From Escherichia coli O127:H6 str. E2348/69 (lineage in GTDB: Bacteria; Pseudomonadota; Gammaproteobacteria; Enterobacterales; Enterobacteriaceae): a stretch of 64,000 nucleotides of DNA. Below the pieces are notes generated by a model that saw only the letters and a list, made by a program, of their open reading frames with translations, searched no databases and was not told the origin of the DNA. The stretch lies in NCBI RefSeq assembly GCF_000026545.1, contig NC_011601.1. One strand, written 5' to 3'. The stretch's first letter is position 1. Every line of letters begins with the position of its first letter. A program made the translations under genes and the position numbers. Below, piece after piece: positions 18,784-28,362 of this stretch.

Positions 18784-19466
18784 AGGTCAGCCCTCTTCAC
18801 ACCCACGGAGTAGCGGCGCTCAAGGAACAGCAGCACACCATTGGAAACGGTGGTGAAAACAAGATAAATCACGCCGCAGACGATAGCGAAATAGAACGGT
18901 TCCCAGGTACTTTTGCCTGCCAGCTGCGTGGCTTTGACCACATCTTCCAGGCCGAGTAACGAAACCAGTGCGGTAGATTTGAGGATCACCTGCCAGTTGT
19001 TGCCAATGCCTGGCAGGGCGTAACGCATCATCGCCGGAAACATGATCCGCCGAAACACTTGCCCACGAGTAAAACCGAACGCCGTCGCCGCCTCTATATG
19101 TCCTTTCGGCACTGCCATAAACGCGCCACGAAACGTTTCGGTAAAATAAGCACCGTAGATAAAACCGAGAGTGATAATACCTGCGACCATCGGATCAATA
19201 TCAATCTGCCCGACGCCCATCGCCTCCGTCACCGTGTTTAGCGCAATCTGCAAACCGTAGAAAATCAGCAGCATCAATACTAAATCCGGCACGCCTCGAA
19301 TCAGCGTGGTGTACCCTTCGAAAATAAGGCCCGAAAGCCGATTTTGTGAGAGCTTACCGCCAGCGCCAATTAAACCGATGATTACAGCGAGCACTACAGA
19401 GCTGATAGCCAGCTCCAGCGTGACGAGCGCACCCTGTAAAATAACACCTGAAAACCCATACAACAT
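18780..19466 (-). CDS. hisQ: Histidine ABC transporter permease
   Basis: 228-aa membrane ORF in operon order hisJ-hisQ-hisM-hisP. Confidence 0.95.
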   Translation of the reverse strand: MLYGFSGVILQGALVTLELAISSVVLAVIIGLIGAGGKLSQNRLSGLIFEGYTTLIRGVPDLVLMLLIFYGLQIALNTVTEAMGVGQIDIDPMVAGIITLGFIYGAYFTETFRGAFMAVPKGHIEAATAFGFTRGQVFRRIMFPAMMRYALPGIGNNWQVILKSTALVSLLGLEDVVKATQLAGKSTWEPFYFAIVCGVIYLVFTTVSNGVLLFLERRYSVGVKRADL

Positions 19467-19555
19467 GCTGCCTGTCCTGTCGTGTGTGGTGAATTACCGC
19501 CTCTTGTCTCCCTCCGGATACCCGAAGGGAGCGGGCTTTCTTTCACCGATGGCGA

Positions 19556-20338
19556 TTAACCACCATAAACATCAAAATCGAAGTACTTTTTCGCTAATTT
19601 CTCGTAAGTACCGTCAGCGCGCATTTCGGCAAAGGCTTTGTTCAGTGCCTCGCGCAGTTCGTTATCTTCTTTACGCAGGCCCATGCCGGTCCCTACGCCA
19701 AACAGTTTTTCATCTTTAACAGACGGGCCACCGAATTTGTAATCTTTCCCGACGGGCTGTTTGAGGAAACCTTCGCTGGCGGCAACTTCGTCCTGGAACG
19801 CGGCATCAATACGCCCGGCGGTCAGGTCAGAATAAATGTTGTCCTGCCCCTGATAAGAGACGATTTCAATGCCTTTTGGCGCCCAGTGCTCGTTACCAAA
19901 TGTCTCCTGGGTCGTGCCCTGCAATACGCCCACCCGCTTGCCTTTCAGCGATTCTACTGTCGGCTGAATGTCGGAATTTTTCGCCACCACCAGGCGAGAA
20001 TCGGCGGCGTACAATTTGTCGGTGAAGGCTATTTCCTGCTGACGTTTTTCCGTAATGGAAAGCGATGACATGATGGCGTCAATCTTCTTCGCTTTTAAGG
20101 ACGGGATTAACGCATCCAGTGGGTTTTCGACAAACGTACATTGCGTATTGATGCGTTTGCACAACTCCTTCGCCAGGTCGATATCAAAGCCAACTAATTC
20201 ACCTTGTGAATTTTTTGATTCAAATGGCGCATAGGTCGGATCGGTACCGATGCGGATGTTTTGCGGAATCGCAGCAAATGCCGCAGTTGCGCTGGAGAAG
20301 GCCAGAACCAGAGAGAGCGATAGCACCAGTTTTTTCAT
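19556..20338 (-). CDS. hisJ: Histidine-binding periplasmic protein
   Basis: 260-aa ORF with signal peptide; paralogue of the upstream argT. Confidence 0.95.
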
Positions 20339-20558
20339 AATGTCCTCAACTGACAGTCTTTTTATCGGGAATATTTACAGGTTTGTTACACTTATCGTGC
20401 CATAAAATTGACCATCAAGGCAAAATATCCCGCCCCGCTAGACGTATTATTTTTCATTAAAAATGCTTAAGTATGCATTTCAATGCACCACGATAGTGCA
20501 ACAAACCTGGCGTGCACCATGATGATCATTCCATCAGGTACAGCTTCCCTGCGACGTA

Positions 20559-21341
20559 TCAGTCACCGTAGACATTAAAGTCGAAATACTTTTTCGCCAT
20601 CTTGTCGTAGGTGCCGTCCTGACGCAGCTCGTTAAGCGCCTTATTGAAGGCCGCCGTCAGTTCAGCATCATCTTTACGCAGCCCTACACCGGTGCCGTCA
20701 CCGAAGTATTTTTTGTCTTTCACTGATGGGCCTGCAAAGGCGAAATCTTTACCGGCGGGTTGCTTAAGGAAACCTTCGCTGGCAGCAACTTCATCTTGTA
20801 ACGCAGCATCCAGACGTCCTGCAGCCAGATCGGAATAGACTAAATCCTGGTTGGCATAGGCCACCACATCCACGCCTTTGCTACGCCAGGTCTCGTTAGC
20901 GTATGCTTCCTGGGTTGATCCCTGCAGCACACCAACATGTTTACCTTTCAGTGAATCCAGCGTTGGCTGAATCGGTGAACCTTTGGCGGCAATCAAACGA
21001 GAATCTGCGGCGTACAGCTTGTCAGAGAAGGCTATCTCCTGCTGACGTTTATCGGTAATGGAGAGCGACGAAATAATGGCGTCGATTTTTTTCGCTTTCA
21101 GTGAGGGGATCAGCGCGTCAAAGTCACTGGCAACCCAGGTACATTTCACCTGCATCCGTTTGCACATCTCGTTACCGAGATCGATATCAAAGCCAACAAA
21201 GTCACCTTTAGCATCTTTCGATGAGAACGGTGCGTAGGTGGTATCGGTTCCGATACGTACCGTCTCCGGTAGCGCCGCATAGCTGGAAGCCGCTGCGGAG
21301 AGACCGACTAACAAAGACAGAGCGAGAATCGACTTCTTCAT
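20559..21341 (-). CDS. argT: Lysine/arginine/ornithine-binding periplasmic protein
   Basis: 260-aa ORF, highly similar to HisJ. Confidence 0.95.
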
Positions 21342-21399
21342 ACATAACCCTCAAGTGAAAATGGCTTTTTTATGTTGTGTATTGTGTTGTGTGTTTGCA

Positions 21400-21415
21400 G
21401 GCTCTTTCATGCAGG
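21400..21415 (-). promoter_or_regulatory. Candidate sigma-54 (-24/-12) promoter for argT
   Basis: Minus strand reads TGGCATaagaccTGCA (GG-N10-GC spacing) about 60 nt upstream of the argT start. Confidence 0.5.
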
Positions 21416-21606
21416 TCTTATGCCATCTTGACGACAGCAGTAACATTCAACGTTAAACATGTTAATAATACGTTGCATTATTGTCCTAAAGTTGAAGATA
21501 GCAGGTATAGCGGTTGAATCGCAGCGTTTCGATTGAATGGCAGAAACAAAATGTCGAGGATTTGATCGCGGTTGCAAAATTGCCCTGAAACAGGGCAACA
21601 GCGGAG

Positions 21607-22176
21607 TTATGCGCCCTGCCAGCGGGCAAAGAGATCTTCAGGAAGGGTTACCGCAAACTGGTCAAGAACACGATTAACCGTCTGATTTATCACATCATCA
21701 AGGGATTGTGGGCGATGATAAAACGCCGGAACGGGAGGCATAATCACCGCACCGATTTCTGCCGCCTGAGTCATTAAACGCAGATGGCCTAAGTGCAGTG
21801 GCGTTTCACGCACGCAGAGCACCAACGGGCGACGCTCTTTCAGCACCACATCTGCCGCACGGGTCAGTAAGCCATCAGTATAGCTATGGACAATGCCGGA
21901 CAGGGTTTTGATTGAACAGGGTAAAATCACCATCCCCAACGTCTGGAAAGAACCGGAAGAAATGCTGGCAGCAATATCGCGCGCATCGTGTGTCACATCA
22001 GCTAACGCCTGCACTTCGCGCAGGGAAAAATCCGTTTCGAGGGATAAGGTCTGGCGCGCCGCCTGGCTCATTACCAGATGCGTTTCGATATCTGTGACAT
22101 CGCGCAGAACCTGTAATAAACGCACGCCATAAATCGCGCCGCTGGCACCGCTGATGCCTACAATGAGTCGTTTCAT
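21607..22176 (-). CDS. ubiX: Flavin prenyltransferase
   Basis: 189-aa ORF MKRLIVGISGASGAIYGVRLL. Confidence 0.95.
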   Translation of the reverse strand: MKRLIVGISGASGAIYGVRLLQVLRDVTDIETHLVMSQAARQTLSLETDFSLREVQALADVTHDARDIAASISSGSFQTLGMVILPCSIKTLSGIVHSYTDGLLTRAADVVLKERRPLVLCVRETPLHLGHLRLMTQAAEIGAVIMPPVPAFYHRPQSLDDVINQTVNRVLDQFAVTLPEDLFARWQGA

Positions 22177-22270
22177 AAATAGTTGCCCTGTCAGACTTGC
22201 AGGCAGACTTTGCAGGATTTCGGCGGGAGTTGCAAGTCAGGGTGCCAGACCGGCACCCTGAGCGAAGGCA

Positions 22271-23788
22271 TCATCCTTCGTTATGCATTTCGAGATTTTC
22301 CACTTCGTTCTGACGTTGCACTGCTTTGGCGTCGTCATTACGTAAAGTATCGAGGAAATCGAGGTAGCCCTGATCAACGTCTTTGGTGACGTAGACGCCG
22401 TTGAATACCGAGCATTCAAACTGCTGGATATCCGGGTTTTCAGCGCGAACGGCTTCGATCAGATCGTTCAGATCCTGGAAAATCAACCCGTCAGCACCGA
22501 TGATCTGGCGAATTTCATCTACTTCGCGACCGTGAGCGATCAGTTCCGTGGCGCTCGGCATATCGATACCGTAAACGTTCGGGAAGCGAATTTCCGGTGC
22601 CGCAGAAGCGAGGTACACTTTCTTCGCTCCGGCTTCGCGTGCCATCTCGATAATCTGCTCAGAAGTGGTGCCACGGACGATGGAGTCGTCGACCAGCAGG
22701 ACGTTTTTATCGCGGAACTCGGCGCGGTTGGCGTTCAGTTTACGGCGCACGGACTTACGACGCAGCTGCTGACCCGGCATGATGAAGGTACGGCCAACAT
22801 AGCGGTTTTTAACGAAGCCCTGGCGGTACGGTTTGCCCAGAATACGCGCAATTTCCAGCGCGATATCACACGAGGTTTCCGGAATAGGGATCACCACGTC
22901 GATATCCAGATCTTCCCATTCGCGGGCAATTTTCTCGCCCAGTTTGGTGCCCATATTCACGCGCGCGCTGTAAACGGAAATTTTGTCGATGAACGAGTCC
23001 GGGCGGGCAAAGTATACATACTCAAACAGGCACGGATTGCTGACCGGATTGTCAGCACATTGACGGGTAAACAACTGCCCTTCTTCAGTGATGTAAATCG
23101 CTTCGCCAGGCGCGACGTCACGCAGGAAATCAAAGCCCAGCGTATCGAGCGCAACACTTTCGGAAGCGACCATATATTCTGTGCGGTTCTCGTCAATATC
23201 ACGTTTTCCCAGTACCAGCGGACGAATCCCGTTAGGATCGCGGAAAGCAACCATACCGTGGCCGATGATCATCGCCACACAGGCATACGCGCCGCGGATT
23301 AAGCGGTTTGTAGCAGCGATGGCGGCGAAAATGTTGTCGGCTTCCAGCGGGTAGTGGCGGAAGTTGTCCAGCTCGCTGGCGAAGATATTAAGCAGAATTT
23401 CCGAGTCGGAAGTGGTGTTGATGTGGCGGCGTTTTTCTTCAAACAGTTTTTTACGCAACTCGTGAGCGTTGGTCAGATTACCGTTGTGGGCAAGCGTAAT
23501 GCCATACGGGGAGTTAACGTAAAACGGCTGCGCTTCAGAGGCGCTGGAGCTGCCAGCCGTGGGGTAACGCACATGACCAATGCCCATATTGCCCTGCAAA
23601 CGCTGCATATGGCGAGCTTCAAATACATCGCTCACCAGCCCGTTCGCTTTCCGCAAACGGAAGCAGTTATTGGCATCTATGGTGATGATGCCGGCGGCAT
23701 CCTGACCGCGATGCTGAAGCACCGTTAAGGCATCATAAATCGACTGGTTAACCGGCATAACACCGGCGATACCGACAATACCGCACAT
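22271..23788 (-). CDS. purF: Amidophosphoribosyltransferase
   Basis: 505-aa [12 protein letters not shown]..., N-terminal Cys glutamine amidotransferase. Confidence 0.97.
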
Positions 23789-27702: not shown

Positions 27703-28362
27703 TTATTTTGCGGCGCGTGCCGCAGCGCGTTTGTGGCGAATAAATTCGAAAACACCAGGCAATATTGAAACAAAAATAATGCCAACAATCATCAGTTTAA
27801 GGTTGCTCTGAATAAAGGGGAGCGTGCCGAAGAAATAACCCGCGTAGGTAAAAATCAGTACCCACAACAGTGCGCCAATCACGTTATAAGCGGCGAAATG
27901 ACGGTACGACATGTGGCCCATTCCCGCAACAAACGGGGCGAACGTTCTGACGATCGGCACAAAACGGGCGAGAATAATCGTTTTGCCGCCATGTTTCTCA
28001 TAAAACTGATGGGTTTTGTCGAGATAACTGCGACGGAAAATTTTCGAATTGGGATTACTGAATAACTTTTCACCGAACAACCGCCCGATAGTGTAATTGA
28101 CCGCGTCACCCACAATCGCGGCGATCAGCATCAGCACCACCATCATATGGACGTTGAGATCGTTGGTCTCCAGTGATGCCAACGCTCCGGCAACAAACAG
28201 CAATGAATCACCCGGTAAAAACGGCGTTACCACCAGACCGGTTTCACAGAACAAAATTAAGAACAAAATGGCATAAACCCAGACGCCGTACTCCGCGACC
28301 AGCTCTGCCAGATGCACGTCAATGTGCAGGATAAAATCGATGAGGAAATAAATCAGGTCCAT
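27703..28362 (-). CDS. dedA: DedA-family inner-membrane protein
   Basis: 219-aa polytopic ORF. Confidence 0.92.

Follow-up and report, generated by a model that had tools for sequence, protein, structure and literature searches.

Studies of how NtrC and sigma-54 control argT, and of how nitrogen controls the histidine transport operon, go back to the 1980s, and modern ChIP-seq catalogues contain both of the sites discussed here. The closest described system is argTr of Salmonella Typhimurium and E. coli K-12, where the 16-mer TGGCATAAGACCTGCA, its position and its gene neighbours are identical to those of our locus and where sigma-54 was shown to be bound in vivo in both organisms. A second point of comparison is glnAp2, whose sigma-54 start is preceded, at about 110 and 140 bp, by two strong NtrC dyads. 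A third is the hisJ (dhuA) region, for which PMC6640053, drawing on Caldara et al. 2007, describes a sigma-70 promoter of hisJQMP that is weakly repressed by ArgR, with two ARG boxes 3 bp apart lying 17 bp upstream of the -35 element. Finally, Schaefer et al. 2015 defined classes I and II of sites at which sigma-54 binding overlaps and represses sigma-70 promoters, argT being one of the examples tested; in Salmonella, glmY/glmZ are a case of this kind. Everything essential about the locus is therefore already published and nothing in it is new: its two motifs are long-known nitrogen-starvation switches. The value of the present analysis is in confirming them, in correcting coordinates and in annotating the control region. 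A modest interest attaches to the target promoter of the intercistronic NtrC site in E. coli, given the weak sites upstream of argT and the non-canonical box next to hisJ.

The window, a stretch of 64,000 nucleotides, is from E. coli: 1351 bp around both motifs are 100% identical to E2348/69, and the same 1351-bp stretch is found in 5425 of the 5426 complete E. coli genomes. The genes, all on the minus strand, run in the order ubiX-argT-hisJ, followed by hisQMP, and the 220-bp spacer between argT and hisJ holds an NtrC dyad and a TGGCAC box. The window is of EPEC type; from ubiX to hisJ it differs from K-12 MG1655 by 86 SNPs and no indels, none of the SNPs falling inside the motifs discussed, and there is no difference of substance from argTr. 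To measure conservation, 80 Enterobacteriaceae loci, collected from species-representative genomes in one scan, were combined with the window to give 81 sequences; the order ubiX-argT-hisJ-hisQ is found in all 80 loci. Altogether, we identify the region with high confidence as the nitrogen-regulated (Ntr) control region of the argT-hisJQMP genes, which encode a basic amino-acid/histidine ABC transporter. A known riboswitch, leader or sRNA was also considered and rejected, as a search of positions 19400-22300 against the Rfam families gave no match at E-values up to 1. The features are listed in Table 1.

Table 1. Features of the ubiX-argT-hisJ region in window coordinates, in the direction of transcription.
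Feature	Position	Strand	Basis
ubiX	22176-21607	-	Window ORFs/RefSeq annotation
Dyad TGCCCTGTTTCAGGGCA, just past the ubiX stop codon	21581-21597	.	10.4 bits on the NtrC matrix
Putative sigma-70 argT promoter overlapping the sigma-54 box	21431-21465	-	Hexamers read by eye
argT sigma-54 (-24/-12) promoter, ATGGCATAAGACCTGCA	21410-21426	-	Equals published ChIP-seq motif OS22
argT CDS, lysine/arginine/ornithine periplasmic binding protein	20559-21341	-	ORF and RefSeq annotation
Weak second NtrC-type site, ATGATCATCATGGTGCA	20513-20529	.	8.2 bits
Strong NtrC (GlnG) site, TGCACTATCGTGGTGCA read on the minus strand	20484-20500	.	Consensus, matrix, inside ChIP-seq peak
Probable ArgR operator of hisJ: two 18-bp ARG boxes, AATGCATACTTAAGCATT ttt AATGAAAAATAATACGTC	20441-20479	-	Consensus, conservation
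Conserved TTTGCCTT block, candidate -35 of the sigma-70 hisJ promoter	20417-20424	-	At least 95% conserved
Sigma-54-like box TGGCACGATAAGTGTA, GG-N10-GT	20387-20402	-	12.9 bits, rank 4 in the window
hisJ CDS, histidine periplasmic binding protein, first gene of hisJQMP	19556-20338	-	ORF and RefSeq annotation

The control region is crowded, bringing together a sigma-54 box, overlapping sigma-70 promoters, ARG boxes, an NtrC dyad and a second sigma-54-like box. The preliminary description of this DNA contained neither the sigma-54-like box next to hisJ nor the sigma-70 promoters that are published for both control regions and overlap them.

Upstream of argT and on the same strand, the 16-mer reads from 21425 to 21410, with GG at 21424-21423 and GC at 21412-21411, i.e. 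in the GG-N10-GC arrangement. The preliminary description had the string and the spacing right but placed them at 21400-21415, a slip of 10 nt, so that its upper bound cuts through the motif. Its distance of about 60 nt from argT was a fair estimate: counted upstream from the argT ATG (21341), the box ends at 68 nt and the start site predicted by Bonocora et al. 2015 lies at 58 nt. In the window, the sigma-54 start is predicted near position 21399.

How far does the sequence itself identify this box? A loose scan of the window for TGGCAC-N5-TTGCA, with 2 mismatches allowed, returned 22 matches for 28 expected, hence no enrichment. As such a consensus is uninformative, matrices derived from published sites were used instead. 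The sigma-54 matrix was derived from Bonocora et al., using their 41 intergenic-sense ChIP-seq sites other than argT. In the weight-matrix scan that had been proposed as a check, the argT box scored 14.7 bits on this matrix, ranking second among 127,968 positions and above 11 of the 41 source sites. Since about 1.5 matches as good as this one are expected by chance per 64 kb, the score alone does not prove that the box functions; it is its position, its orientation, its conservation and its published occupancy that decide the matter.

In K-12, the sigma-54 ChIP-seq site OS22 is ATGGCATAAGACCTGCA, upstream of argT, with its motif centre at 2425890 of NC_000913.2 (Bonocora et al. 2015); this centre maps, without indels, to position 21418 of the window, the centre of the 17-mer. 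In Salmonella, sigma-54 binds the identical box in ChIP-chip, and argT is up 3.5-fold with a constitutively active enhancer-binding protein. The argT/ubiX spacer was also selected in vitro by the RpoN holoenzyme (gSELEX), and an argTp-lacZ fusion was reported to respond to the Ntr system. According to a 2019 paper (PMC6640053), activation of the argT sigma-54 promoter by NtrC under nitrogen limitation is established; Ames and Nikaido 1985, who defined the NtrC consensus, are cited as the experimental basis for Salmonella argT. Conservation is in line with these data. GG-N10-GC is kept in all 81 Enterobacteriaceae sequences, with changes confined to the spacer, at a distance of 55-89 nt from the ATG; with a mean identity of 0.94, the box falls in the top percentile of its intergenic region, and the 33-mer centred on it is exact in 4902 of 5426 E. 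coli genomes. In its sequence, in its occupancy as published and in its conservation, the argT box is a sigma-54 promoter.

The same DNA would also serve a sigma-70 promoter. Reading the hexamers by eye, we propose a -35 element TTAACA (21465-21460) and a TG-extended -10 element TACTGC (21442-21437), with a start near 21431; the TTATTAACA block of this region is at least 95% conserved, and a sigma-70 promoter scan of both spacers called no minus-strand promoter. In Table S3 of Schaefer et al. 2015, the sigma-54 motif occupies +6 to +22 of the argT sigma-70 start site. In that study, expression of rpoN lowered argT expression to 23% of the vector control, and sigma-54 cut sigma-70 initiation on the argT promoter in vitro by 10-60%. 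One could thus see in the argT box mainly a brake, where parked holoenzyme blocks the sigma-70 promoter and repression in nitrogen-rich conditions outweighs activation. We regard this as rather unlikely. Repression and NtrC-dependent activation can coexist, argT was reported to be induced under NtrC-activating conditions, and the box is accompanied by NtrC sites across the family. Purely repressive sigma-54 sites differ in this respect from the argT box, which can also be activated as a promoter.

The second motif is the palindrome between argT and hisJ. In the literature, the NtrC consensus is the 17-bp dyad TGCACC-N5-GGTGCA (TGCACCAnnnTGGTGCA), from which the plus-strand string TGCACCACGATAGTGCA differs by 1 mismatch in 12, and it lies exactly where the preliminary description had put it. 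The NtrC matrix was derived from 16 sites in nine other K-12 regions under NtrC ChIP-seq peaks, whose best sites have themselves 1-3 mismatches to the consensus. On this matrix, the dyad reaches 19.1 bits, the first of 63,984 window positions, the runner-up being at 11.8, and its score is level with those of the best glnA, glnH and nac sites. Over 100 Markov-simulated windows, no position scored above 17.5. The dyad is far beyond chance.

The NtrC ChIP-seq of Brown et al. 2014 uses the same reference version, NC_000913.2, onto which the dyad maps at 2424956-2424972. It is located within their peak 12 (2424941-2425021), which is 23.7-fold enriched in nitrogen-starved cells and assigned to hisJQMP. 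Over the argT sigma-54 box itself lies peak 13 (2425861-2425941), which was added by eye, is 5.4-fold enriched and is assigned to argT. A point against the Ntr reading is that the argT/hisJ spacer is not among the targets listed in the NtrC-only gSELEX tables of one study's main text. By its sequence and its published ChIP-seq occupancy, the dyad is an NtrC site. The nitrogen-regulated expression that had been proposed for the two periplasmic binding proteins is supported by both the OS22 match and the position of the dyad inside peak 12.

The dyad is also widely conserved. Of 5426 E. coli genomes, 5285 carry the 33-mer centred on it without a change, 71 of the 81 species have an NtrC site scoring 13 bits or more in the argT-hisJ spacer, and the right half of the dyad, GGTGCA, is nearly invariant across the 81 species. 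Over these species, the two intergenic regions contain 3.46 NtrC sites of 13 bits or more per kb and the adjacent coding DNA 0.009 per kb, a roughly 380-fold enrichment. That both motifs might be chance matches devoid of a regulatory role could be argued from the lack of enrichment of the loose sigma-54 consensus and from the chance expectation for the argT box score. With both sites occupied in vivo in published work, a dyad score never equalled in simulations and conservation across 81 species together with the enrichment over coding DNA, this idea is refuted and retains next to no probability.

NtrC normally oligomerises from two or more sites, and the single strong site with a half-site in E. 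coli counts against the Ntr reading. In most other genera, the spacer contains two or three NtrC dyads, set at fixed offsets of about 95, 117 and 147 bp from the TGGCAC box. Escherichia has no third dyad because of a gap of about 31 nt, but a half-site is retained at 20513-20529, a position that corresponds to a full dyad in other genera. In this weak site, whose centre is 29 bp upstream of that of the strong dyad, only the right half GGTGCA is intact, and it is at least 95% conserved.

Which promoter does the dyad serve? The sites are deeply conserved and their occupancy comes from published genome-wide data, while the wiring from dyad to promoter is what we infer. Most likely, the target is the sigma-54-like box next to hisJ, which ends 48 nt before the hisJ ATG. 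This box is favoured because its geometry relative to the dyad matches that of glnAp2-type NtrC promoters, a geometry that is canonical in many other genera. The likeness to glnAp2 extends to the type of dyad, with AGCACCATGTTGGTGCA and TGCACCAATATAGTGCT at glnA and TGCACTATCGTGGTGCA here, and to a similar distance to the TGGCAC box, 97 bp from centre to centre in the window. The two systems differ in that the E. coli spacer has a single strong site accompanied by the 8.2-bit half-site, that at -12 the downstream box reads GT, its occupancy by sigma-54 being unreported, and that ARG boxes and a sigma-70 promoter are placed between enhancer and box.

The TGGCAC of the hisJ box is invariant in 81 of 81 sequences, and the 33-mer centred on it is exact in 5407 of 5426 E. 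coli genomes. GC at -12 is found in only 42 of the 81 species; Escherichia, with its GT, departs from the GG-N10-GC pattern. The hisJ box does not appear among the K-12 sigma-54 sites in Tables 1 and 2 and the 8 supplementary files of Bonocora et al., nor in the Salmonella sigma-54 site list. Given the GT at -12 and the lack of reported sigma-54 occupancy, the E. coli hisJ box has not been filed as a sigma-54 promoter. These two features, together with the description of the hisJ promoter as sigma-70 dependent, run against our main reading.

The two ARG boxes, 3 bp apart, have 24 of 32 consensus matches, tie as second-best site in the window and form a conserved block; judging from their layout, they are probably the ArgR operator of hisJ. 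A conserved TTGCCT begins 17 bp after the second ARG box, and from its conservation and this spacing the TTTGCCTT block is a probable -35 element for the sigma-70 hisJ promoter of the literature. As far as the hisJ (dhuA) region of Caldara et al. 2007 is described in PMC6640053, the same layout is given, with two ARG boxes 3 bp apart and the -35 element 17 bp later, and this description mentions neither the NtrC dyad nor the TGGCAC box. Downstream of TTGCCT, neither the promoter scan nor reading by eye revealed a convincing -10 hexamer at a suitable distance. A hairpin-like sequence is also present between the ARG boxes and the hisJ promoter.

This arrangement raises the question of whether the invariant TGGCAC belongs to sigma-54 at all. 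It could instead be part of the sigma-70 promoter or the site of another protein, the dyad acting on hisJ in some other way. TGGCAC(G/A)(A/T)TA is indeed invariant while GC at -12 is not, the published hisJ promoter depends on sigma-70, TTGCCT fits its -35 element at the expected distance from the ARG boxes, and no sigma-54 ChIP signal was reported at hisJ. On the other hand, TGGCAC is the canonical -24 element, fourteen species carry the textbook TGGCACGATAACTGCA (18.2 bits) at this place, functional psp promoters also have TGTA at -12 (Bonocora et al. 2015), and TTGCCT is not followed by a convincing -10. We consider this alternative a serious one, with a probability somewhat below even.

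The region most likely works as follows. In nitrogen-rich cells, argT and hisJQMP would be read from their sigma-70 promoters, hisJ being under ArgR, and sigma-54 holoenzyme parked just downstream of the argT sigma-70 start would dampen argT. Sigma-54 RNA polymerase would wait upstream of argT, bound to the -24/-12 box in a closed complex. Upon nitrogen limitation, phosphorylated NtrC, supplied in starved cells by the high-affinity 17-bp dyad, would contact the closed complex by DNA looping and hydrolyse ATP, and only then would the promoter fire. The outcome for nitrogen scavenging would be more of the binding proteins and of the HisQMP permease that they share.

A contribution of the dyad to the argT promoter, about 0.9 kb away, is also possible. 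In a stronger version of this idea, the dyad is mainly a remote enhancer of the argT sigma-54 promoter, whose predicted start lies about 907 bp upstream of it, and hisJQMP is induced by read-through from argT into hisJQMP rather than from a sigma-54 promoter of hisJ. Several observations are consistent with this. In most genera beyond Escherichia, Citrobacter and Salmonella, strong NtrC dyads are found about 201 and 171 bp upstream of the argT box; in these three, no site of at least 11 bits is present upstream of argT, and in 80 of the 81 species at least one of the two intergenic regions has a strong site. The NtrC ChIP signal is high at the dyad and much lower over the argT promoter (23.7- versus 5.4-fold), as a looped contact predicts. 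NtrC sites in the spacer are kept with or without GC at -12 of the hisJ box (in 0.95 versus 0.79 of species), sigma-54 occupancy at hisJ is unreported, and several sources treat argT-hisJQMP as one operon. Moreover, Reitzer and Magasanik are said to have found in 1986 that NtrC sites moved kilobases away from glnAp2 still activate. Nevertheless, the dyad stands at a textbook distance from the hisJ box, about -115 from the start site predicted for this box, the weak dyad at 21581-21597 may suffice for argT, sites for the nitrogen regulation of argT were defined in the Salmonella work as it is cited, and a hairpin-like sequence separates the ARG boxes from the hisJ promoter. On balance, it is possible but not probable that the dyad acts mainly in this remote manner.

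A mixed situation can also be imagined, in which Escherichia, and probably Salmonella and Citrobacter too, have lost their strong NtrC sites upstream of argT through decay, leaving the dyad as a shared enhancer for both argT, at about 0.9 kb and across a coding sequence, and the degenerate hisJ box. We put this forward only as a speculation, and an unlikely one. If true, it would provide a natural bacterial enhancer acting from downstream, at a distance so far encountered mainly in engineered constructs.

Finally, the region between ubiX and the argT box deserves a description of its own. Apart from the dyad TGCCCTGTTTCAGGGCA, no NtrC site above 5.4 bits was detected in the argT upstream region, including the DNA under ChIP peak 13. 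A conserved block at 21549-21573 was considered as an IHF site and set aside, as it matches WATCAANNNNTTR only with 2 mismatches, by eye. The dyad TGCCCTGTTTCAGGGCA has its centre 171 bp upstream of the argT sigma-54 box and aligns with clear NtrC sites of other genera, such as TGCGCTGCGGTGGTGCA of Klebsiella, where the hairpin is poorer. In E. coli, it forms a hairpin with a 9-bp stem (-15.1 kcal/mol) and UUUU after it; a scan with a terminator consensus did not call it, the run having only 4 T. It may thus be a weak NtrC-type site, the terminator hairpin of ubiX, or both.

Immediately downstream of the palindrome, the strong NtrC site in the argT/hisJ spacer (20484-20500), about 31 nt are absent from Escherichia at about window 20482-20483, as compared with Enterobacteriaceae ubiX-argT-hisJ loci L011-L084. 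In other genera, this segment holds a third NtrC dyad, whose centre is 22 bp from that of the second. Raoultella terrigena also lacks these 31 or so nt.

Near the 3′ end of ubiX, we identified a further dyad that is the alignment counterpart of strong NtrC dyads of Klebsiella and Raoultella, and whose E. coli version scores only 10.4 bits with the NtrC matrix. The same sequence also folds into a hairpin of -15.1 kcal/mol with UUUU after it, like a terminator. A second dyad, of the TGCCC-N7-GGGC type, is found 31 bp (three helical turns) upstream. The latter is probably a coincidence, since it reaches only 5.4 bits with the same matrix and lies within coding sequence.

Features of the ubiX-argT-hisJ region and of dedA (window positions)
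Feature	Sequence	Position	Strand	Location or remark
Dyad	TGCCCTGTTTCAGGGCA	21581-21597		immediately 3′ of ubiX stop codon
TGCCC-N7-GGGC dyad	TGCCCGCTGGCAGGGCG	21612-21628	-	3′ end of ubiX
Conserved block	AACCGCGATCAAATCCTCGACATTT	21549-21573	-	between the 21581-21597 dyad and the argT promoter
CA-rich tract	AAACACACAACACAATACACAACATAAAAAA	21345-21400	-	argT 5′ untranslated region
ARG-box-like pair		20441-20479	-	two 18-mers, 3 bp apart; 24/32 consensus matches
Conserved motif	TTTGCCTT	20417-20424	-	17 bp past ARG-box-like pair
Sigma-54-like box	TGGCACGATAAGTGTA	20387-20402	-	ends 48 nt upstream of hisJ ATG
Sigma-54 matrix match	TTGGCATTATTTTTGTT	27769-27785	-	within dedA in sense orientation, with accD about 230 nt downstream

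Upstream of hisJ, the ARG-box-like pair is the joint second-best site within the window. This pair and the conserved motif that follows it fit the published ArgR operator and the -35 element of the sigma-70 hisJ promoter, respectively. The hisJ-proximal sigma-54-like box has a TGGCAC that is unchanged in all 81 species compared; its -12 GC is retained in only 42 of them, Escherichia having GT, and published reports describe no sigma-54 ChIP signal at this box. GT also occupies the -12 position of the dedA match, which has the highest sigma-54 matrix score of the whole window (15.7 bits). This match is probably due to chance, because it goes unmentioned in the main text of the ChIP-seq paper on K-12 sigma-54.

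Upstream of argT, the conserved block shows an identity of 0.91 over the 81 species, placing it in the top percentile of the spacer. Within it lie a GATC and a motif, ATCAA-N4-T, that loosely resembles an IHF site. The length of the CA-rich tract differs between species through insertions and deletions of ACAAC/ACACA units, and the tract is much enlarged in Trabulsiella and in locus L077 (‘Enterobacter pulveris’). It might act as a translational enhancer or as an Hfq-type A-R-N motif.
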